IMG/VR virus record: IMGVR_UViG_2877263951_000003
Origin: a virus
Lineage: Duplodnaviria > Heunggongvirae > Uroviricota > Caudoviricetes
Length of the DNA stretch: 62,478 bases
Reading direction: 5' to 3' (one strand)
Positions 1 to 36,475 of this stretch are shown one piece after another (position 1 is the stretch's first letter; every line of letters begins with the position of its first letter). The translations under genes and the position numbers were made by a program. The notes below the pieces were generated by a model. That model had not been told where the DNA came from and ran no database searches. It saw nothing but the letters and a program-made list of their open reading frames with translations.

Positions 1-1812
1 ATGCTCAGAAACATTTCATCCTGTTTATTTCCACATATCAGCACAATTACATCCCCCAACCATTATTTGTCCGAATGGGATGATTGGGAGAAACAGGGGT
101 TACCGGAAGAACAGCGTACTGAGGCGGTAAGAAGACTTCGTGCATGTCTTACCTCTAAGGGGCATAAACTGGACCTGCGAGCCTTGGCGCTTTCCTCGCT
201 ACCTGTACTCCCTGCTTGCATTAAAAAGCTTGATGTGAGCTGTAATAAATTAACCATCCTTACTGATTTACCTGAAAATATTAAAGAACTTATTGCAAGA
301 GATAATTTCTTAACACATATATCTGCATTACCACATTATCTAATAACTTTGGATGTGTCCGAAAATCAATTAGAGAATCTGCCGTTATTACCAGACACCA
401 TCAAATCACTAAGCGCAGAGTATAATAGGTTATCCACACTGCCTTCATTACCCTTGAATTTAAAAAAACTTGAGGTTAGGAACAACGAACTGCAAACTCT
501 TCCATCTCTGCCTTCTAATCTTAAGATACTTAAGGTTGCGCACAACCATCTTACTGAACTGCCCCCTTTACCTAGGAGACTGCAACTTCTTTTTGCATAT
601 AGCAATAGATTAAGCAACTTACCAAACATCCAAGAAAATATTATCATGAGAAGATTTTTTTATTTTGAAAACAACCAAATAACTACAATCCCGACAAATC
701 TTTTTCGTTTAGATCCTCATATAACTATTGAGATTGCAAATAACCCCTTATCAGATCAAACTCTGCTATTCTTAATACAGCAAACTTCGGTTCCAAATTT
801 TAACGGGCCTCAGTTTCGTATTTCCCTGTCAGACCAAAACAGACTGTTTTTACGCCAGATGTTGCCGCAAAATTTACATTCGCGCCATATCAGAGTCATC
901 ACTGAAGGGGGGCAGAACTTTCAGATCCCCCCTCTTCCCGAAACTGTGGCAGCCTGGTTTCCTGAAGCAGATCGTCGGGAGGTTTCTACACAATGGACTT
1001 CTTTTTCCACCGAGGAGAATTCCCGGGCATTCTCCGCGTTCCTTGACCGCCTTTCCGATACCGTCTCTGCACGCAATACCTCCGGATTCCGTGAACAGGT
1101 CGCTGCATGGCTGGAAAAACTCAGTGCCTCTGCGGAGCTTCGACAGCAGTCTTTCGCTGTTGCTGCTGATGCCACTGAGAGCTGTGAGGACCGTGTCGCG
1201 CTCACATGGAACAATCTCCGGAAAACCCTCCTGGTCCATCAGGCATCTGAAGGCCTTTTCGATAATGATACCGGCGCTCTGCTCTCCCTGGGCAGGGAAA
1301 TGTTCCGCCTCGAAATTCTGGAGGACATTGCCCGGGATAAAGTCAGAACTCTCCATTTTGTGGATGAGATAGAAGTCTACCTGGCCTTCCAGACCATGCT
1401 CGCAGAGAAACTTCAGCTCTCCACTGCCGTGAAGGAAATGCGTTTCTATGGCGTGTCGGGAGTGACAGCAAATGACCTCCGCACTGCCGAAGCCATGGTC
1501 AGAAGCCGTGAAGAGAATGAATTTACGGACTGGTTCTCCCTCTGGGGACCATGGCATGCTGTACTGAAGCGTACGGAAGCTGACCGCTGGGCGCAGGCAG
1601 AAGAGCAGAAGTATGAGATGCTGGAGAATGAGTACCCTCAGAGGGTGGCTGACCGGCTGAAAGCATCCGGTCTGAGCGATGATGCGGATGCGGAGAGGGA
1701 AGCAGGAGCACAGGTGATGCGTGAGACTGAACAGCAGATTTACCGTCAGCTGACTGACGAGGTACTGGCCCTGCGATTGTCTGAAAACGGCTCACAACTG
1801 CACCATTCATAA
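1..1812 (+). CDS. ipaH: IpaH-family type III effector, LRR domain plus C-terminal NEL E3 ubiquitin ligase domain
   Basis: N-terminal half is leucine-rich repeats (LxxLPxLPxxL); C-terminal ~300 aa contains the CEDR catalytic Cys motif and ends ...ENGSQLHHS; C-terminal domain near-identical to the CDS at 59656..61419. The ORF begins at window position 1, so the true N-terminus may lie upstream of the window. Confidence 0.85.
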   Translation: MLRNISSCLFPHISTITSPNHYLSEWDDWEKQGLPEEQRTEAVRRLRACLTSKGHKLDLRALALSSLPVLPACIKKLDVSCNKLTILTDLPENIKELIARDNFLTHISALPHYLITLDVSENQLENLPLLPDTIKSLSAEYNRLSTLPSLPLNLKKLEVRNNELQTLPSLPSNLKILKVAHNHLTELPPLPRRLQLLFAYSNRLSNLPNIQENIIMRRFFYFENNQITTIPTNLFRLDPHITIEIANNPLSDQTLLFLIQQTSVPNFNGPQFRISLSDQNRLFLRQMLPQNLHSRHIRVITEGGQNFQIPPLPETVAAWFPEADRREVSTQWTSFSTEENSRAFSAFLDRLSDTVSARNTSGFREQVAAWLEKLSASAELRQQSFAVAADATESCEDRVALTWNNLRKTLLVHQASEGLFDNDTGALLSLGREMFRLEILEDIARDKVRTLHFVDEIEVYLAFQTMLAEKLQLSTAVKEMRFYGVSGVTANDLRTAEAMVRSREENEFTDWFSLWGPWHAVLKRTEADRWAQAEEQKYEMLENEYPQRVADRLKASGLSDDADAEREAGAQVMRETEQQIYRQLTDEVLALRLSENGSQLHHS

Positions 1813-1848
1813 TCACATCGCATAAACCACAGACCGGACTGACTCCGG

Positions 1849-1875
1849 AAAAACAGAGGCCCGCCCCCGGGCCTC
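1849..1875 (-). terminator. Rho-independent terminator downstream of left tfa, between convergent ipaH and tfa
   Basis: Hairpin GAGGCCCG-CCCC-CGGGCCTC at 1856..1875 with A-run 1849..1855 on the + strand (T-run for the minus-strand transcript); mirrored copy at 59593..59619. Confidence 0.5.
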
Positions 1876-1991
1876 CCCGGATTCATCCGTTTCCCTGTTC
1901 AGCCTGACAGCACGCCCCGGCGGCCGGATGACAGACTCCGCTTCGGTAAGCAAAGCGGTCTTCTGTGATTCCGCCAGTTGCGGCTTATTCA

Positions 1992-2555
1992 TTACTCAAC
2001 GTCAAACGCCCGAATTGAAGCCAAATCATCCAGACCGCTCAGCTCCTCTTTCATTTCACGCTGACGGCGATAAATCTCATCGTTGCGATCGACCTGCGCC
2101 TGCACCATTGCTGCCGCCAGTTCTTCCAGTTCCGGCATCGACAGTTTCACCTGCTGATTATCGGCATCACCCCACGTCATCACGTCCCGTACAATGTCGG
2201 ATTTCGCAGCCATTACCACCGGATAAAGGCGGCCCAGTGAGTTGGGGCCAGCATTCCAGATACGACCGTTCCATTCAAACGTGAACGGCTTCGCCTCCTG
2301 TTCTGTGCGCCATGCTTCAATTTCCTGACGTCTGGCCTCTCTGGCCGCTTCCAGCATTTCTGGTGTCACAGTGAATGGGGCTATCTCACCCCATTTGCCA
2401 CTTTGCAGTTCCTGCCAGATTCGCTGACCCGTCGGTGCGACATCATCAGCGGTGGCTGTGTAGGGGACTGCCTGGTCCCTGTCGTCAAAAAAAACGTCAC
2501 AGTCTACTGCGCCACTTTCGGTATAACGGGGATTAATGATTTTTTTAATTTCCAC
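1992..2555 (-). CDS. Phage tail fiber assembly protein (Tfa-like)
   Basis: Translation [38 protein letters not shown]... nearly identical to the Tfa at 58913..59476; GTG start preceded by GAGGA. The supplied ORF 1992..2636 runs on into IS600-derived codons; IS600 is inserted 55 bp upstream at 2611. Confidence 0.7.
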
Positions 2556-2674
2556 GGTGCATTCCTCACGATGTGCGAATAAAAAGCCCGGGCATTGCGC
2601 CAGAGACATGTGAGGTAGCCTGAGTTTAACGGACACTCCTTCCTGAAATAGAATGGCATCAGAAGGAGCTAATA

Positions 2675-2977
2675 ATGAGCAGAAAAACCCAACGTTACTC
2701 TAAATAGTTCAAAGCCGAAGCTGTCAGAACGGTTCTTGAAAATCAACTTTCGATCAGTGAAGGCGCTTCCCGATTATCTCTTCCTGAAGGCACTTTAGGA
2801 CAATGGGTTACCGCCGCCAGAAAAGGGCTCGGTACTCCTGGTTCCCGCACGGTGGCTGAACTGGAATCTGAAATTCTGCAACTGCGTAAGGCGTTAAATG
2901 AAGCTCGCCTTGAGCTCGATATATTAAAAAAAGCAACAGCGTATTTTGCACAGGAGTCGCTGAAAAATACGCGTTAA
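2675..2977 (+). pseudogene. IS600 orfA with in-frame amber codon at 2705..2707
   Basis: Reads MSRKTQRYSK then TAG where the other copies have GAG (KEFKAEAV...); the rest of the frame is intact. Confidence 0.8.
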
Positions 2978-3012
2978 TCGAACAATGGCGACAACAATTT
3001 CCCATTGAAGCG

Positions 3013-3831
3013 ATGTGTCAGGTATTTGGTGTATCCAGGAGCGGTTATTACAACTGGGTACAGCATGAACCCTCAGACAGAAAACAAAGTGATGAGCGGC
3101 TAAAACTGGAGATTAAGGTGGCACATATCCGCACTCGCGAAACATATGGAACCCGGCGGCTCCAGACGGAGCTGGCAGAGAATGGCATCATCGTTGGTCG
3201 TGACCGACTGGCACGTCTTCGTAAGGAGCTGAGGCTACGCTGTAAGCAGAAACGCAAGTTCAGAGCGACTACGAACCCGAACCACAATCTGCCAGTTGCG
3301 CCAAATCTGCTGAACCAGACGTTCGCTCCTACAGCACCAAATCAGGTCTGGGTGGCGGACCTGACGTATGTTGCCACACAGGAGGGATGGTTGTACCTCG
3401 CTGGCATCAAAGATGTTTATACGTGCGAAATTGTCGGCTACGCCATGGGAGAGCGCATGACAAAAGAGCTGACAGGTAAAGCCCTGTTTATGGCGCTCAG
3501 GAGCCAGCGCCCACCTGCCGGGCTAATCCACCACTCTGATCGAGGTTCACAGTACTGCGCATACGATTACCGGGTCATACAGGAGCAGTCTGGTCTGAAA
3601 ACATCAATGTCGCGTAAAGGTAACTGTTACGACAACGCTCCGATGGAAAGCTTCTGGGGAACGCTGAAAAATGAGAGCCTGAGCCACTATCGTTTTAATA
3701 ACCGGGATGAAGCCATCTCAGTAATACGGGAATACATTGAGATTTTCTACAATCGTCAGCGTCGTCACTCTCGTCTGGGGAATATCTCCCCGGCAGCCTT
3801 CAGGGAAAAATATCATCAGATGGCTGCTTAA
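3013..3831 (+). CDS. IS600 orfB transposase (DDE catalytic domain), 272 aa
   Basis: IS3-family signature WVADLTYVATQEGWLYLAGIKD ... HSDRGSQY ... CYDNAPMESFW; identical to the copies at 31063..31881 and 36752..37570. Confidence 0.9.
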   Translation: MCQVFGVSRSGYYNWVQHEPSDRKQSDERLKLEIKVAHIRTRETYGTRRLQTELAENGIIVGRDRLARLRKELRLRCKQKRKFRATTNPNHNLPVAPNLLNQTFAPTAPNQVWVADLTYVATQEGWLYLAGIKDVYTCEIVGYAMGERMTKELTGKALFMALRSQRPPAGLIHHSDRGSQYCAYDYRVIQEQSGLKTSMSRKGNCYDNAPMESFWGTLKNESLSHYRFNNRDEAISVIREYIEIFYNRQRRHSRLGNISPAAFREKYHQMAA

Positions 3832-3874
3832 AAAAAGAACAAATGGTAGTGTCCGCTATTGCCAGTACACCTCA

Positions 3875-4046
3875 TATTGGCTACGTAATTAAAACAGAAA
3901 ATAAAGAAACCCCATTCACTGTAGTTGATATCGACGGTCTATCAGGAAACTTTAAAACTCTTGTTGAAGGTGCCACAAAAATGTGCCTAGTTTACATCGG
4001 AAATAATCTGCCCGCAGAAAAAAAGCCGAATTTCTGGCAAATCTGA
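3875..4046 (+). pseudogene. C-terminal fragment of an unknown gene truncated by IS600 copy A
   Basis: Open frame runs straight out of the IS end (..IGYVIKTENKETPFTVVDIDGLSGNFKTLVEGATKMCLVYIGNNLPAEKKPNFWQI*); no start codon of its own outside the IS. Confidence 0.25.
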
Positions 4047-4088
4047 TTGCAATGAAATTAAAAGGTGAAATCTGAAAAAAAGAAAGCC

Positions 4089-4107
4089 TGCACAGTGTGC
4101 AGGCCTG
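4089..4107. terminator. Perfect 9-bp palindrome GCCTGCACA-G-TGTGCAGGC, terminator-like
   Basis: Stem-loop flanked by an A-run upstream on the + strand (T-run on the minus strand). Confidence 0.3.
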
Positions 4108-4174
4108 AGTGAAGAACCTGGGACATTTATTCATCACTCGCAGTAATTTTAATCTGAGTTGAGGTTAAAAAACA

Positions 4175-4800
4175 ATGAGCACAAAACCACTCTTCCTGTT
4201 ACGGAAAGCGAAAAAATCATCCGGTGAACCTGACGTCGTCCTGTGGGCAAGCGACGATTTTGAATCGACCAGCACCACTCTGGACTATCTGCTCGTTAAG
4301 TCAGGTAAAAAACTGAGCAACTATTTTAAAGCTGTTGCCACAAATTTTCCTGTCGTTAATGACCTTCCCCCTGAAGGTGAGATCGATTTTACCTGGAGTG
4401 AACGCTATCAACTCAGCAAAGACTCCATGACATGGGAACTAAAACCGGGAGCAGCGCCAGACGACGTTCACCACCAGGATAATGCTCAAGAAACCAAAGA
4501 ACTGGCGGGAGGCCAGGAAGAAAACGCGCAGGCAGACGCCCACGAGGATTGCCAGGATTGCGAAGTCTCTGTAGCCACTTTGCGGTTCACACAGCGTCTT
4601 CTGCACATTTTTACGTATGCTGCCGGGGATCGGAAATACCTGCATCATGCCACCCGTGAACAACGCAAACACATTACTGCTCTTGAGATGGATCAGGAAA
4701 ACAGCTATGTCCAGAATCTGCTGTTGGCCATACGCGGCATGGCAGAACCGACAACTCTGGATAATGCCGCCCTGCTCCGCCTGACTGATGCAATTAAGGC
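4175..4800 (+). CDS. Hypothetical protein, C-terminus replaced by IS600 copy B
   Basis: 208 codons after a plausible RBS (GAGGTTAAAAAACAATG); acidic central region; the last six codons and the stop come from the IS end at 4801. No family recognised. Confidence 0.4.
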
Positions 4801-5637
4801 TGAGGTGTACTGGCAATAGCGGACACTACCATTTGTTCTTTTTTTAAGCAGCTATCTGATGATATTTTTCCCTGAAGGCTGCCGGGGAGATATTCCCCAG
4901 ACGAGAGTGACGACGCTGACGATTGTAGAAAATCTCAATGTATTCCCGTATTACTGAGATGGCTTCATCCCGGTTATTAAAACGATAGTGGCTCAGGCTC
5001 TCATTTTTCAGCGTTCCCCAGAAGCTTTCCATCGGAGCGTTGTCGTAACAGTTACCTTTACGCGACATTGATGTTTTCAGACCAGACTGCTCCTGTATGA
5101 CCCGGTAATCGTATGCGCAGTACTGTGAACCTCGATCAGAGTGGTGGATTAGCCCGGCAGGTGGGCGCTGGCTCCTGAGCGCCATAAACAGGGCTTTACC
5201 TGTCAGCTCTTTTGTCATGCGCTCTCCCATGGCGTAGCCGACAATTTCGCACGTATAAACATCTTTGATGCCAGCAACATACGTCAGGTCCGCCACCCAG
5301 ACCTGATTTGGTGCTGTAGGAGCGAACGTCTGGTTCAGCAGATTTGGCGCAACTGGCAGATTGTGGTTCGGGTTCGTAGTCGCTCTGAACTTGCGTTTCT
5401 GCTTACAGCGTAGCCTCAGCTCCTTACGAAGACGTGCCAGTCGGTCACGACCAACGATGATGCCATTCTCTGCCAGCTCCGTCTGGAGCCGCCGGGTTCC
5501 ATATGTTTCGCGAGTGCGGATATGTGCCACCTTAATCTCCAGTTTTAGCCGCTCATCACTTTGTTTGAAGTGGCACACTGAATTTGGCCACCTGAACAGA
5601 GGTGATATGCTCACCTCAGAACAACACAGGTGCTCCA

Positions 5638-7738: not shown

Positions 7739-8293
7739 TTATTTTAAAGAAAGTAATTGTTCCACAGTCATATTTTTAATTGCGCCCCGGTTAACAAGAG
7801 TCCATCCCTGTTTTTCCAGATAAAACCGGAAAGTCTCCAGGGTACAGACCAGTGCGCCATCAGGAACGGTTTCGGTGAATTCGACATTGCCGAATTTGTC
7901 GAAGTGAACAACCAGAGTGCGACCATCACCCGGAATCATCTTGTCAGCAGGTGGGGTGTTATTCTGGCGCAGTTCGGCCTCCATGCGGTCGAACTCAGCA
8001 ATGTAGGCTTCCTTGAATGCGGCGGCTTTTTTGCCAGTGAAGCCCATCACCAGGAAAACGAAGCCGTTTTTGGTGATTTGGTACATTGGGCGTTTTTCGC
8101 CTTTGGCGTCGGTATAGGTGACGGGCTTAAAATTAAGCCGGTTAAACTCCGGCGAGCATTCGAGAGTTTCGATCTTCTGAATAACGTTTTTGTGCATTTT
8201 CCGGAAGAACTCCGCAACCGCAACAGACGTAGTGACAGCGCGACCATTTTCGATGGTTGCGTCAGGGTGAGAAAGGGTAAGGATAGTAGCCAT
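7739..8293 (-). CDS. Phage regulatory protein, Rha family (antirepressor-like)
   Basis: MATILTLSHPDATIENGRAVTTSVAVAEFFRKMHKNVIQKI ... ITKNGFVFLVMGFTGKKAAAFKEAYIAEFDRME. The supplied 318-aa ORF 7739..8695 runs on upstream through a terminator and a structured element; the start is taken at the ATG at 8291..8293. Confidence 0.7.
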   Translation of the reverse strand: MATILTLSHPDATIENGRAVTTSVAVAEFFRKMHKNVIQKIETLECSPEFNRLNFKPVTYTDAKGEKRPMYQITKNGFVFLVMGFTGKKAAAFKEAYIAEFDRMEAELRQNNTPPADKMIPGDGRTLVVHFDKFGNVEFTETVPDGALVCTLETFRFYLEKQGWTLVNRGAIKNMTVEQLLSLK

Positions 8294-8350
8294 GATGGCA
8301 GCCTCGATAGTCAGTTTAAATGACTCACCACCAGAGGTAGCAATCTCATG

Positions 8351-8429
8351 GGTGGTGAGACGCACAGGGTTGCTACAACCGGTGACTACCGAAACCGGCC
8401 AGCCTTGCGGCTGCCCTGCACGCCCCACC
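8351..8429 (-). ncRNA. Candidate structured RNA element upstream of rha (paralog of 22900..22978)
   Basis: 16-bp closing stem GGUGGGGCGUGCAGGG / CCCUGUGCGUCUCACC (4 G-U pairs) enclosing a GCAA-loop hairpin (CAGCC/GGCTG) and a CCGG-12nt-CCGG hairpin; same architecture with compensatory changes in the second copy. Confidence 0.4.
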
Positions 8430-8457
8430 ATAATCTGAATGTGGCTGTGCTTGACGC

Positions 8458-8484
8458 ATAAAAAAACCGCCTGAGCGCGGTTAT
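8458..8484 (-). terminator. Rho-independent terminator immediately upstream of the structured element
   Basis: Minus-strand AACCGC-GCTCAG-GCGGTT followed by TTTTTTT; conserved at 22846..22868. Confidence 0.55.
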
Positions 8485-9134
8485 GCGCAGTAGTCATCGT
8501 CGGGGTAGCAATCCCGGCACCCGTTTTATGAGGTGCAGGTGCACTATAATTCCACCCGTTCTGGTTTTCAATAGCTACATTCAACATTTTCTCTTTCCTT
8601 TCATCACCGAAGTGAACTTTGTTGATGCGGTGCCTGGTGCCTCCAGGTGACGTTAACCAGTTAACAATTACAGTTGGCTTTCCCACCCAAACCAATAAGG
8701 ACTAACATGACTTTTAACTGTGCCGCGTGCGCATAGCCGCATTCACCGCATCACAAAATTCACTTTAAAAAGGGCGGACATCAGCCAGCAATTAAACCGA
8801 TGCCGCCAACTGGTACTTCACACAGCAATGTCGTTATTTACAACCGGAAGCGCACTCCCACCATTTAAATTTCACAGACAAGACCGACTCTTTATGGATA
8901 CCGGAAATGCGCCTTCGTGTTGTGCCCGGTTTTATTTCACCACTTCCGGGCTTTGGTGGTATCTTTACTGAAGTTCTCACACAACCAGTAAGGAAATGAA
9001 TATGCCAACGTATCTCGCCAGAGTAGAACTATATAATGCTGAGTAGACTGGCCCCCTGAATCTCCAGACAACCAGTATCACTTATTTAAGTGATAGTCTT
9101 AATACTAGTTTTTAGACTAGTCATTGGAGAACAG

Positions 9135-9500
9135 ATGATTGATGTCTTAGGGCCGGAGAAACGCAGACGGCGTACCACACAGGAAAAGATCGCAATTGTT
9201 CAGCAGAGCTTTGAACCGGGGATGACGGTCTCCCTCGTTGCCCGGCAACATGGTGTAGCAGCCAGCCAGTTATTTCTCTGGCGTAAGCAATACCAGGAAG
9301 GAAGTCTTACTGCTGTGGCCGCCGGAGAACAGGTTGTTCCTGCCTCTGAACTTGCTGCCGCCATGAAGCAGATTAAAGAACTCCAGCGCCTGCTCGGCAA
9401 GAAAACGATGGAAAATGAACTCCTCAAAGAAGCCGTTGAATATGGACGGGCAAAAAAGTGGATAGCGCACGCGCCCTTATTGCCCGGGGATGGGGAGTAA
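9135..9500 (+). CDS. insC: IS2 OrfA (InsC-like)
   Basis: [56 protein letters not shown]... Confidence 0.85.
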
Positions 9501-10363
9501 GCTTAGTCAGCCGTTGTCTCCGGGTGTCGCGTGCGCAGTTGCACGTCATTCTCAGACGAACCGATGACTGGATGGATGGCCGCCGCAGTCGTCACACTGA
9601 TGATACGGATGTGCTTCTCCGTATACACCATGTTATCGGAGAGCTGCCCACGTATGGTTATCGTCGGGTATGGGCGCTGCTTCGCAGACAGGCAGAACTT
9701 GATGGTATGCCTGCGATCAATGCCAAACGTGTTTACCGGCTCATGCGCCAGAATGCGCTGTTGCTTGAGCGAAAACCTGCTGTACCGCCATCGAAACGGG
9801 CACATACAGGCAGAGTGGCCGTGAAAGAAAGCAATCAGCGATGGTGCTCTGACGGGTTCGAGTTCTGCTGTGATAACGGAGAGAGACTGCGTGTCACGTT
9901 CGCGCTGGACTGCTGTGATCGTGAGGCACTGCACTGGGCGGTGACTACCGGCGGCTTCAACAGTGAAACAGTACAGGACGTCATGCTGGGAGCGGTGGAA
10001 CGCCGCTTCGGCAACGATCTTCCGTCGTCTCCAGTGGAGTGGCTGACGGATAATGGTTCATGCTACCGGGCTAATGAAACACGCCAGTTCGCCCGGATGT
10101 TGGGACTTGAACCGAAGAACACGGCGGTGCGGAGTCCGGAGAGTAACGGAATAGCATAGAGCTTCGTGAAAACGATAAAGCGTGACTACATCAGTATCAT
10201 GCCCAAACCAGACGGGTTAACGGCAGCAAAGAACCTTGCAGAGGCGTTCGAGCATTATAACGAATGGCATCCGCATAGTGCGCTGGGTTATCGCTCGCCA
10301 CGGGAATATCTGCGGCAGCGGGCTTGTAATGGGTTAAGTGATAACAGATGTCTGGAAATATAG
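9458..10363 (+). pseudogene. insD: IS2 orfB (InsD-like) with in-frame amber codon at 10157..10159
   Basis: Frame stops at ...[12 protein letters not shown] and continues [19 protein letters not shown]... to 10363; the canonical IS2 sequence I recall has GAG here. Confidence 0.75.
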
Positions 10364-10604
10364 GGGCAAATCCACTGAGCCAGAGGATTACGAAGGGCTT
10401 CATAAATATATGCTCTCACTAGGATTCAGGAGAACGATCCCCCATGGAGATGGTTCGTATAATCAACTCCCGGACGGAACTTATGTTTCCGAAAAGGGCG
10501 GTGATATTTATCAAATTCGCAGCCAGATATCTGACTATGCAGACCGACTATCCGGGTATCGCGCGTCTGTTTTTGTTTGCGAATTCAGTCAATGCGCATG
10601 GTAT

Positions 10605-15583: not shown

Positions 15584-15810
15584 TTTTATGGGGCACCTTT
15601 CTGATTGATTTCATATTGGCGAGGTAAGTAGAATGACTGCGGGTGCTTGAGGCTATCTGCTTCAGGCATGAACACCAAAAGGCAGATAGAGAAAAGCCCC
15701 AGTTAACATTACGCGTCCGGCAAGACGCTTAACATTAATCTGAGGCCAATTTCATGCTTTGCACATGTAGGTTAGCCTCTTACATGCCGAAAGGCAAGGA
15801 GAAGCAGGCT

Positions 15811-15966
15811 ATGAAGCAGCAAAAGGCGATGTTAATCGCCCTGATCGTCATCTGTTTAACCGTCATAGTGACGGCACTGGTAACGAGGAAAGACCTCTGT
15901 GAGGTACGAATCCGAACCGGCCAGACGGAGGTCGCTGTCTTCGTAGACTACGAATCCAGGAAGTAA
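15811..15966 (+). CDS. Hok/Gef-family membrane toxin (type I toxin)
   Basis: MKQQKAMLIALIVICLTVIVTALVTRKDLCEVRIRTGQTEVAVFVDYESRK; overlapping upstream mok-like leader frame from 15754; stem-loop-rich leader. Confidence 0.75.
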   Translation: MKQQKAMLIALIVICLTVIVTALVTRKDLCEVRIRTGQTEVAVFVDYESRK

Positions 15967-22089: not shown

Positions 22090-22398
22090 TTAAACGAAGC
22101 GGATCTGGAGTTTTTTTCCAGTAGCGCGGGCGAATTTTTTTAGTGTGGCAAATGATGGGCCGCTGATACCTGATGCGAGATTACTTTCCATTCTGGTGAT
22201 CGCGGTCGCTTTTGTTCCCATTCGCTCGGCAACTTCAGCCTGAGTTAAGCCAGCTTCTTTGCGTGCTGCCAGCATTTCATCAAGCAGTGCGAATTCGTCA
22301 GCGATAGCGTCGTATTCTGCTTTAAAAGCCGGGTCTTCCATCCATTTGGCTGCCATTTCGTCGTGTGTCATGGTGGGGAGAGTGCGTTTACCAGTCAT
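22090..22398 (-). CDS. HigA-like antitoxin, XRE-family HTH
   Basis: ...AGLTQAEVAERMGTKATAITRMESNLASGISGPSFATLKKFARATGKKL; start overlaps the toxin gene's 3' end. Confidence 0.65.
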   Translation of the reverse strand: MTGKRTLPTMTHDEMAAKWMEDPAFKAEYDAIADEFALLDEMLAARKEAGLTQAEVAERMGTKATAITRMESNLASGISGPSFATLKKFARATGKKLQIRFV

Positions 22399-22716
22399 GC
22401 TTAACCTCCTTCATTCTGGTTTCAGCTTTCTTGCGTTCGGCTGGCGGTGTTTTCTGCGCTTTCTTTACAAAACTATGCAGCATGATGATGCGTTTCCCTG
22501 TCAGAGTGCAGTAAAAAACACGCGCGATCCCATCGTTGCCTTTAATTCTGAGTTCGAAAAGCCCGTCACCAAAGGCGCTGGTGTGAGGTTCTCCGAGATT
22601 GCTGCCGTATACCTTCATGCGTTCAACAAGATGCTGGTATCTGGCACGCATACTCAATGGAAGCTGATCGACCTCCAGTCGGACCTCTTCACTGTAGTAT
22701 TCGATAGTGTAGTTCA
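22388..22716 (-). CDS. RelE/HigB-superfamily toxin (gp49-like)
   Basis: MNYTIEYYSEEVRLEVDQLPLSMRARYQHLVERMKVYGSNLGEPHTSAFGDGLFELRIKGNDGIARVFYCTLTGKRIIMLHSFVKKAQKTP; toxin-then-antitoxin order as in higBA. Confidence 0.65.
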
Positions 22717-22845
22717 TACAGCAAAACATAACAAAATCGTTATATCTGCACAATATATTGATTCTGCAATTTCGGGACGTTACACTGTCTCTGCACCTTA
22801 TAAAGCGGGGGCCGGGATTGGCGTCCTGAAATTCAATATAGAGCA

Positions 22846-22868
22846 TAACCGCGCTCATGCGGTTTTTT
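22846..22868 (+). terminator. Rho-independent terminator upstream of the structured element and rha
   Basis: AACCGC-GCTCAT-GCGGTT followed by TTTTTT; paralog at 8458..8484. Confidence 0.55.
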
Positions 22869-22899
22869 CGTGTCATGAGCATTGCTACGCCCAAATTAT

Positions 22900-22978
22900 G
22901 GTGGGGCGTGCAGGGACATCGCAAGATGCGCCGGGTTCTATGTTGACCGGTTACGCCAACCCTGTACGTCTCACCACC
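22900..22978 (+). ncRNA. Candidate structured RNA element upstream of rha
   Basis: Closing stem 22900..22915 (GGTGGGGCGTGCAGGG) with 22960..22975 (CCCTGTACGTCTCACC); GCAA-loop hairpin CATC/GATG at 22917..22928; CCGG-12nt-CCGG hairpin at 22931..22950; stems differ from the paralog at 8351..8429 by compensatory changes. Confidence 0.4.
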
Positions 22979-23035
22979 TCTGTGATTGGCGTCCCATGTG
23001 GTGAGTTCTTTGAATTCAACATAGGGGCTGTCACC

Positions 23036-23599
23036 ATGACTACTCTCCCAACCCTCTCTCAACCTGAAATTGCCATCGTTGATGGTTAGGCTGTTACTTC
23101 ATCCCTGGCTGTTGCCAACTTCTTCTCTAAACGTCATGACGATGTTCTGAAAAAGATCCGCATTTTGGATTGTTCTCCAGAGTTTTGTGCCCGCAATTTT
23201 GCGGAGACATCAATTTTGGTACGCCAGCCCAACGGCGGTACTCGCAAACTTCCCTGCTACCAAATTACCCGCGGCGGCTTCGCCTTCCTTGCTATGGGCT
23301 TCACTGGTAAACGTGCCGCCCGGTTCAAAGAGGCATACATCAATGCCTTTAACCAGATGGAGAGGAGCTTATCAGGAGCTGGTGCGGCTGACATGTCATC
23401 TGTCGCACAAAACGCCAGAGGCGTATACCTGCATTTGCGTGAAATCCATCAAATCTGGACAAGCCAGCTTTACCCAATGCTTAAGGCCGTTGAATCTCCG
23501 CTGGCTGGCAAACTGTACGACCGTGTAGGTGATGCTGTTTTTGGTGCTGCACTTGTTGATTCCAGGCTGAATGGTTCTGACAAGGAGGTGCGCCCATGA
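23036..23599 (+). pseudogene. Rha-family regulatory protein with in-frame amber codon at 23087..23089
   Basis: MTTLPTLSQPEIAIVDG-TAG-AVTSSLAVANFFSKRHDDVLKKIRILDCSPEF...ITRGGFAFLAMGFTGKRAARFKEAYINAFNQME; the other rha copy has CGC (Arg) at this position. Confidence 0.65.
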
Positions 23600-28122: not shown

Positions 28123-28199
28123 GGCCCTTTAGCTCAGTTGGTCAGAGCGAGCGACTCATAATCGCCAGGTCGCTGGTTCAAGTCCAGCAAGGGCCACCA
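28123..28199 (+). tRNA. tRNA-Ile2-like (anticodon CAT; Met-type anticodon, Ile2 by similarity to ileX/ileZ)
   Basis: Cloverleaf: acceptor GGCCCTT/AAGGGCC, D-stem GCTC/GAGC, anticodon loop CTCATAA, T-stem GCTGG/CCAGC, encoded CCA. Confidence 0.8.
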
Positions 28200-28200
28200 A

Positions 28201-28277
28201 CCACCACTAGCTCATCCGGATAGAGCATCAACCTTCTAAGTTGACGGTGCGAGGTTCGAGTCCTCGGTGGTGGGCCA
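28201..28277 (+). tRNA. tRNA-Arg (anticodon TCT)
   Basis: Acceptor CCACCAC/GTGGTGG, anticodon stem TCAAC/GTTGA, loop CTTCTAA, T-loop TTCGAGT, encoded CCA. Confidence 0.75.
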
Positions 28278-28279
28278 GC

Positions 28280-28355
<76 letters not shown>

Positions 28356-28358
28356 TAT

Positions 28359-28433
<75 letters not shown>

Positions 28434-35388: not shown

Positions 35389-36148
<760 letters not shown>

Positions 36149-36152
<4 letters not shown>

Positions 36153-36475
36153 TTTTTCCAGAGGCGGTCGAACTCCGCCTTCGCAAAATAAGCGGAAGCC
36201 TGGCGAAGGATATCGTTACTGCGGCGCAGTTCACGATTTTCACGCTCCGGCTCTTTCAGACGCTGACGTTCAGCGGTGGTGAGCCCTCCATCACCGCCCC
36301 CGGTATCCCGCTCATGCTGGCGACCCCAGACACGCAGAGTCTCCGGCGTACAGCCAATCTTTGGAGCAATGGAACAAATTGTCGCCCATTGTGAGTCATA
36401 TTCGCCCTGACTTTCCAGAACCATACGGACTGCCCGTTGACGGACTTCGGGGGAAAAACGAGTATTTTTAGTCAT
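36149..36475 (-). CDS. IS629-like OrfA
   Basis: [50 protein letters not shown]... Confidence 0.8.

Follow-up and report, generated by a model that had tools for sequence, protein, structure and literature searches.

The 134 bases flagged upstream of rha in the window (the whole stretch of 62,478 nucleotides of viral DNA that was analyzed) comprise, judging from their sequence, a C4/CI-type antisense RNA and, before it, the terminator of an IsrK/seqA-type small RNA. By the same kind of evidence, they belong to an RNA immunity module of the P4/P1/Gifsy-1 type, a kind that is already known. The module lies inside a long open reading frame starting at ATG 8587, which, from its sequence, is probably a real, conserved nested frame and the counterpart of eta/kil of satellite phage P4. 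The overall reading that we favor, and which analogy with these systems makes rather probable, is thus an IsrK-C4 immunity module placed before rha in a Rac-like prophage and nested in an eta-like long frame from ATG 8587. The novelty is low, as both the RNA families and the module are known; the added value lies in the annotation and in an open frame that is maintained without selection on the peptide that it encodes.

IsrK and C4 RNAs upstream of rha

The whole window was scanned against Rfam with the curated gathering cut-offs as thresholds. Matches to isrK and C4 were recovered on the minus strand upstream of rha (copy A) and again on the plus strand in a second copy (copy B; Table 1). The isrK match of copy B scores 58.1 bits, likewise above the RF01394 cut-off of 50, and its C4 match scores 74.8 bits; the C4 matches of both copies cover positions 1-87 of the 87 positions of the RF01695 model. 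The claim of an earlier note, made from the letters of the window, that a terminator and a structured RNA are contained in the listed ORF was therefore well founded, with the isrK terminator at 8482..8459 and C4 at 8435..8348. The predicted stem of the terminator (8482..8465) is followed by a T-run and is part of the Rfam isrK match. Directly before the start of IsrK, and inside the long ORF, there is a predicted promoter (8571..8543), which occupies the same place in copy B and in the IMG/VR loci described below, and which corresponds to PisrK and to P4 PLE.

The C4 RNA consists of a 17-bp closing stem around two internal hairpins. Its predicted fold in copy A has a free energy of -48.3 kcal/mol (z = -5.1), with none of 200 shuffled sequences being as stable, and the copy B fold has z = -4.1. 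For comparison we collected 120 viral contigs from IMG/VR sharing an 18-mer of the C4 5' arm, which yielded 86 unique loci; the probe 18-mer includes the ATG inside C4, and the loci are related and recombining. Across these loci hairpin 1 of C4 is present in 18 variants, which are nearly all paired and include compensatory ones. Co-variation of the hairpin, and of the target sites considered below, was assessed by direct counts.

Copies A and B align without gaps across the 98 codons before rha. As previously noted, copy A has an intact rha (184 aa), whereas that of copy B carries an amber codon, with TAG 23087..23089 in place of the CAG found in 26 relatives. Hairpin 1 of copy B (22916..22929, plus strand) reads ACATC...GATGC where the relatives have GCATC...GATGC, and this mismatch of the closing pair, caused by a G-to-A change, is unique among the 86 loci. 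Copy B also lacks the start of the long form, which a recombination breakpoint at 22755 has removed; homology of the copy B region to an E. coli O121 prophage starts at this position, 3 nt before the -35 hexamer. The amber codon, the lost long-frame start and the C4 stem mismatch together suggest decay of copy B. Its immediate upstream neighbor, at 22090..22727 on the minus strand, is a toxin-antitoxin-like (higBA-like) pair, one member being Gp49/HigB-like and the other resembling an HTH_3 antitoxin.

Table 1. Features of the two IsrK-C4-rha copies in the window
Feature	Position	Strand	Basis or remark
Copy A: listed ORF, 318 aa, TTG start	7739..8695	-	list of open frames
Copy A: long nested ORF, 282 aa, ATG 8587, eta-like 'Ash-Rha' frame	7739..8587	-	
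Copy A: internal sigma-70 type promoter, TTGAAA-17-TATAGT	8543..8571	-	10/12 consensus matches; predicted
Copy A: IsrK/seqA-type small RNA including terminator	8460..8536	-	Rfam RF01394, 61.5 bits, cut-off 50
Copy A: b1 site ATTGCTACC, loop of second IsrK hairpin	8504..8512	-	complementary to C4 b'
Copy A: a1 site TGACTACTG in IsrK	8488..8496	-	complementary to C4 a' loop, 9 bp
Copy A: IsrK intrinsic terminator, hairpin AACCGCGCTCAGGCGGTT and T-run	8459..8482	-	6-bp stem, predicted
Copy A: C4/CI-type antisense RNA	8348..8435	-	Rfam RF01695, 75.7 bits, cut-off 45
Copy A: ATG in C4 5' arm	8429..8431	-	in frame with rha, 46 codons before rha ATG
Copy A: a' recognition loop of C4 hairpin 2, TTTCGGTAGTCA	8383..8394	-	
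Copy A: b' single-stranded linker before C4 3' arm, TGTAGCAA	8370..8377	-	
Copy A: b2 target ATTGCTACC in rha leader	8336..8344	-	
Copy A: a2 target TGACTATCGAGG	8302..8313	-	overlaps rha Shine-Dalgarno GAGG 8305..8302
Copy A: short form Rha, 184 aa, MATILTLSHP..., kil-position gene	7739..8293	-	intact
Copy B: internal promoter, TTGATT-17-TACACT	22758..22786	+	
Copy B: IsrK	22793..22869	+	b1 22818..22824; a1 22833..22844
Copy B: C4	22894..22981	+	a' 22935..22946; b' 22952..22959
Copy B: targets	22986..23026	+	b2 22986..22992; a2 23016..23026 over Shine-Dalgarno
Copy B: rha pseudogene	23036..23599	+	amber TAG 23087..23089

Open reading frames and start codons of copy A

The listed ORF begins at TTG 8695, and the ATG of rha (8293..8291) is located 134 codons 3' of it. 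A search with Pfam HMMs places PF10554 at residues 50-143 of the 318-aa ORF (74.2 bits, E = 1e-20) and PF09669 (Phage_pRha) at residues 155-239 (106.7 bits, against a cut-off of 29.9). By analogy, rha is probably a Bro-network regulator or antirepressor gene in a Rac-like prophage. The earlier proposal that rha has a start of its own, at MATILT..., is supported on two counts: the segment GAGGCTGCCATCATGGCTAC around its ATG recurs unchanged in P4 as the ribosome-binding site and start of kil, and codon periodicity in rha-type loci is first seen at this ATG, with none upstream.

Three further start codons deserve attention. The 36 codons from TTG 8695 to ATG 8587 are probably spurious, having been added by the rule used for listing open frames. 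ATG 8587 is preceded by AAGGA in copy A, and its equivalent is the start of a 282-aa 'Rha family' CDS of RefSeq in a 99% identical E. coli locus. The concern that annotation as a single protein hides the RNAs was hence justified: RefSeq carries just such a 282-aa protein, and Pfam has PF10554 over isrK-C4. Finally, an ATG within the 5' arm of C4 is in frame with rha and conserved in both copies (8431..8429 in A and 22898..22900 in B), which contradicts the earlier assertion that the upstream part has no conserved start codon.

Complementarity and co-variation of the recognition sites

Two segments of C4, the a' loop and the b' linker, are complementary to sites both in IsrK (a1 and b1) and in the rha leader (a2 and b2). 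In copy A, a' pairs with a2 over 12 bp, G-U pairs included, covering the GAGG of the Shine-Dalgarno sequence, and with a1 (8496..8488) over 9 bp, while b' forms 7 bp with each of b1 and b2, the motif TTGCTAC being present once in the rha leader (8343..8337) and once in an IsrK hairpin loop (8511..8505). Copy B has other sequences in the same geometry, and A-B cross-pairing does not rise above background; on these complementarities, the two copies in the window are of orthogonal specificities.

The 86 loci contain 26 different a' loops and 11 different b' linkers in 30 combinations, each of which is matched by sites in the IsrK and the leader that go with it. Over the 30 combinations, the mean helix with the own target is longer than that with the targets of other loci for a2 (10.3 vs 6.95), a1 (9.07 vs 6.70) and b2 (7.03 vs 5.01). 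The a' and b' segments of C4, the IsrK sites and the rha ribosome-binding sites thus co-vary, both between the two copies of the window and among the 30 types in the 86 loci. The distribution of the a' and b' variants over these loci gives the impression that two independent specificity determinants have been shuffled as modules.

Evolution of the PF10554 ('Ash') region

PF10554 matches the 98 codons upstream of rha in the window with 69.7 bits, and the same region of copy B with 43.4 bits. This family has been used as a marker for epsilon in a survey of P4-like satellites (PMC8628076), and a study of Stx phages lists the Ash domain as one of unknown function (PMC8951638). When two spans of P4 were compared (8168..8584 and 7888..8175), P4 epsilon was found to match PF25738 and not PF10554, whereas PF10554 matches residues 22-85 of an obsolete P4 ORF, the "cI gene product (AA 1-137)", which lies over the CI RNA. 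From these sequence matches, PF10554 'Ash' and the 'ash family protein' of RefSeq appear to be translations of the isrK-C4 locus. Recognizing them as such would prevent wrong functional inferences, and the 'Rha/Ash family' annotations affected run to thousands of lambdoid and Stx-phage proteins.

The earlier note had proposed in advance that substitutions between the two copies be compared by codon position and had predicted conservation of the upstream part at the level of nucleotides; the outcome was as predicted. Over the upstream 98 codons, A and B differ at 30/36/35 first, second and third positions, with a nucleotide identity of 0.66 and an amino-acid identity of 0.45. Over codons 1-38 of Rha, the differences number 14/6/20, with a nucleotide identity of 0.65 and an amino-acid identity of 0.53. 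The same holds for diversity by codon position in the 76 Rha-type loci from IMG/VR, which is 0.24/0.27/0.28 upstream and 0.28/0.22/0.48 in rha; the excess of third-position variation expected of a protein domain was sought in the PF10554 region of these loci and was absent there. This flat pattern implies that the upstream part is conserved at the nucleotide level, without selection on amino acids.

These results bear on the possibility that 'Ash' is a genuine folded domain fused to Rha, with the Rfam matches being incidental. The PF10554 match itself (E = 1e-20) and the hundreds of annotated proteins combining Ash and Rha speak for such a domain. Against it stand the flat diversity by codon position, an amino-acid identity lower than the nucleotide identity, the fact that the variable sites are explained by three-way co-variation of RNA segments, and the match of the same family to an obsolete P4 ORF ('cI protein') overlying the CI RNA. 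An AlphaFold2 model of the 282-aa ORF, built from a shallow alignment of 29 sequences, has a pLDDT of 23-35 over the Ash part, but as the model is poor overall (mean pLDDT 37.9), with the Rha domain likewise below 50, it weighs neither for nor against. We regard a folded Ash domain as very improbable indeed, and favor the reading in which the upstream conservation reflects the two RNAs.

Conservation of the long reading frame

If the upstream peptide is not itself selected, it may be asked whether the frame is open by accident. A census of stop codons was made over the span from 156 nt before the C4 ATG to rha, which passes through the promoter, IsrK, the terminator and C4, in the 76 Rha-type loci with their 21 specificity combinations. 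The rha frame has no polymorphic stop position in any of the 76 loci, whereas the other two have 22 and 24 such positions. A naive binomial calculation gives P ~8e-9 for this depletion, a figure that assumes independent positions and equal stop-proneness of the three frames, in loci that are related, recombining and selected by the 18-mer. Stop positions in the three frames number 0/12/17 before the C4 ATG and 0/9/8 after it, and the two length classes, of 138 nt and 141 nt, are both in frame.

The frame is also provided with starts. Among 37 distinct upstream contexts, 20 have a ribosome-binding site and an ATG or GTG in the rha frame, compared with 1 and 2 in the other frames. These starts lie 147-159 nt before the C4 ATG, just 5' of the internal -35 hexamer, and the contexts supply them although they are not homologous to one another. 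In the remaining 17 of the 37 contexts, which include copy B, no ribosome-binding site with a start was found nearby. It is common for the long-form start and the stop of the gene before it to overlap in an ATGA. E. coli O121 has a head-to-tail series of three CDSs of this kind, each with its own IsrK and C4 and each starting 54 nt before its IsrK. Tandem 'ash/Rha family' genes, in two or three copies, are present at 1173..3345 of locus L124 (E. coli O121) and at 3505..5015 of locus L008. Such tandem IsrK-C4 genes are joined by ATGA overlaps, are spaced ~656 nt apart, and sit in the interval bounded by cro-side and replication genes. With the modules so placed, transcription of the early operon must cross several RNA immunity switches.

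The frame is broken in 10 of the 86 loci, namely those in which a different gene lies downstream, the Gifsy-1 type among them; hence the long frame is not required for C4 modules in general. Long database homologs covering the upstream part, which the earlier note took as evidence that would speak against its view, do formally exist: the best 120 protein matches are 247-320 aa long, mostly 282-284 aa, and all contain both PF10554 and PF09669. We rejected these as decisive proof of a long protein, since gene callers derive them from this same open frame, and taken alone they settle nothing.

The principal alternative is that the upstream 98-134 codons are never translated, with the open frame being an accident of a conserved non-coding region, structured and GC-rich, across which gene callers extend rha. 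This would account for the lack of codon-position periodicity upstream, for a promoter and a terminator lying inside a 'CDS', for copy B and the other contexts without a proximal start, for the broken frames of other C4 modules such as that of the Gifsy-1 type, and for database 'homologs' that are predictions only. It sits poorly with the absence of polymorphic stops across 21 specificity combinations, with length variants that stay in frame, with the recurrence of a ribosome-binding site and start in frame 0 in non-homologous contexts, with ATGA coupling to upstream genes, and with the colinear eta gene of P4, which a summary of the P4 work (PMC10111431) gives as translated. On balance we consider a frame that is never translated rather unlikely. 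The stop avoidance, the in-frame starts with ribosome-binding sites and the eta precedent soften the view of PF10554 as purely spurious. Of the earlier description of the listed ORF as artificial, what stands concerns only the 36-codon stretch between TTG 8695 and ATG 8587, which looks spurious; the description does not extend to the frame from 8587, which is kept free of stops in the 76 loci. In our preferred reading of a conserved nested frame, what is selected is the openness of the frame and its start, and the sequence of the upstream peptide is not.

In the window itself, an IS2 insertion at 9044..10374 separates the copy A module from the upstream operon of the prophage, and the long form of copy A may for this reason no longer be expressed here. 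The insertion measures 1331 bp relative to E. coli FDAARGOS_943, carries IS2-like ORFs, splits the Rac-like prophage, and lies ~456 nt 5' of the long-ORF start, ATG 8587.

Comparison with P4, Gifsy-1 and P1

The closest parallel is with P4, in which PLE, seqA, CI, seqC and kil are all spanned by one ORF (8812..8168) without a change of frame. This ORF is colinear with that of the window (alignment E = 3e-14); its last 65 codons start "EAAIMATTLTPSHPE", the window counterpart being "EAAIMATILTLSHPD", and 20 nt around the ATG are identical. P4 and the window share the same two Rfam families in the same order, a distance of 138 nt from the ATG inside C4 to that of the short gene, a/b complementarities corresponding to the seqA/seqB/seqC sites of P4, and a long-frame start 5' of the internal promoter, which in P4 overlaps the stop of the upstream gene. 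As in eta/kil, a single frame of the window (8587..7739) spans the promoter, seqA, CI, seqC and the short gene, and in copy A the long-form start 5' of the internal promoter has a ribosome-binding site. The two differ in that the short gene encodes a 184-aa Rha-domain protein in the window and the 65-aa Kil in P4, that the module resides in a lambdoid (Rac-like) prophage and not in a satellite phage, and that the gap between IsrK and C4 is 24 nt, as against ~108 nt in P4. Control at timm by Rho-dependent termination is a feature of P4. According to a summary of the work on P4 eta (PMC10111431), the constitutive promoter lies inside the gene, Kil is a shortened version of Eta, translation of the full-length form occurs solely from the upstream promoter and is coupled to the upstream gene, and translation of eta prevents termination. 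IsrK-C4 has previously been equated with P4 seqA-CI, and such modules were noted in lambdoid prophages (PMC3632133).

The IsrK-orf45-anrP locus of Gifsy-1 has been dissected experimentally, revealing a translated leader and a processed RNA of ~80 nt, STnc1160 (PMC4825925), to which C4 corresponds. Like the window, Gifsy-1 has an IsrK small RNA with a terminator, a read-through mRNA, a leader ATG in the 5' arm of C4 and an antirepressor-like gene downstream. Translation of Gifsy-1 orf45, and of the coupled anrP, is driven from the first AUG, at +107 (PMC4825925), and ATG 8431 of copy A is the counterpart of this AUG. However, orf45 is out of frame with anrP, which it overlaps by AUGA, whereas the leader in the window is fused in phase with rha, and the frame of the window, unlike that of Gifsy-1, is also open 5' of the promoter. 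A separate leader ORF ending in AUGA was absent from the window and was seen only in loci resembling L050, with a leader of 45 codons.

Gifsy-1 raises the possibility that the module of the window has only a leader ORF like orf45, with translation running from ATG 8431 into rha and ATG 8587 being irrelevant. ATG 8431 is indeed in frame and conserved in both copies, its Gifsy-1 counterpart is functional as outlined above, and the authors of the Gifsy-1 study point to a fusion of orf45 to anrP in S. dysenteriae (PMC4825925). Such a leader would leave unexplained why the frame is equally protected 5' of ATG 8431, where the stop positions number 0/12/17, and why in-frame starts with ribosome-binding sites are found 5' of the promoter; moreover, there is no obvious Shine-Dalgarno sequence before 8431. 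We therefore find it improbable that the leader start alone is used, and retain the long nested frame from ATG 8587.

P1 offers a more distant comparison, since the target of its C4 is a separate leader gene, icd, coupled to ant, and the Ant protein belongs to a different family from the Rha of the window. In 1990 Citron and Schuster reportedly described that the a' and b' segments of P1/P7 C4 match a1/b1 sites upstream and a2/b2 sites at the ribosome-binding site of the downstream gene, and the specificity of the P1/P7 immI region (c4 - icd - ant) differs between related phages. To our knowledge, neither an IsrK-type terminator small RNA nor a long nested frame has been described in P1. A P1-type arrangement with a separate icd-like leader was considered for the window and rejected, there being no separate leader with its own stop.

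Proposed mechanism and implications for annotation

By analogy with these systems, the internal constitutive promoter (8571..8543) would produce IsrK, ending at its own terminator, and transcripts that read through would carry C4, to be excised as an RNA of ~80 nt. The a' loop and b' linker of C4 would then bind the rha leader at a2 and b2, as the computed complementarity and co-variation suggest. Since pairing at a2 covers the Shine-Dalgarno sequence, translation of rha from ATG 8293 would be blocked, and the untranslated RNA would probably be terminated. IsrK may sequester C4, or may as a partner in cis lock the leader, because the same two segments of C4 match a1 and b1. Only transcripts from the upstream early promoter would contain ATG 8587, and ribosomes crossing IsrK, the terminator and C4 would keep these structures from forming; translation through the RNA structures would in this manner bypass the switch.

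A bolder version of this proposal, about which our confidence is evenly poised, is that Ash is not a protein domain at all. The stretch would be translated only for the sake of translation over the IsrK-C4 switch, with its start and openness selected and its peptide not. Ribosomes from upstream would erase the switch as in P4 eta, and modules in tandem would gate early read-through. If this is true, such modules, which in many phages are lined up in tandem between cro and the replication genes, would control read-through of the early operon with many orthogonal specificities. The module also points to an RNA-based layer of immunity, with many specificities, in medically relevant Stx phages.

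As for annotation, each copy is due genes for IsrK and C4 and an internal rha start; the 318-aa ORF of copy A becomes one of 282 aa, as a nested long form, and copy B becomes a pseudogene.

Other features of the window

The window also contains a match to the sok antitoxin RNA (15641..15816, plus strand, 117 bits), and hokD is annotated at the corresponding end of the prophage in the 99% identical E. coli FDAARGOS_943 (locus L001). A match to the ALIL pseudoknot, a frameshift signal of the IS3 family, is seen at 36078..36194 on the minus strand (113 bits), and other IS families are repeated two to three times in the window (families D1-D6). Four tRNA genes form a tight cluster at 28123..28430 on the plus strand, which is typical of the late regions of lambdoid and Stx-type prophages.
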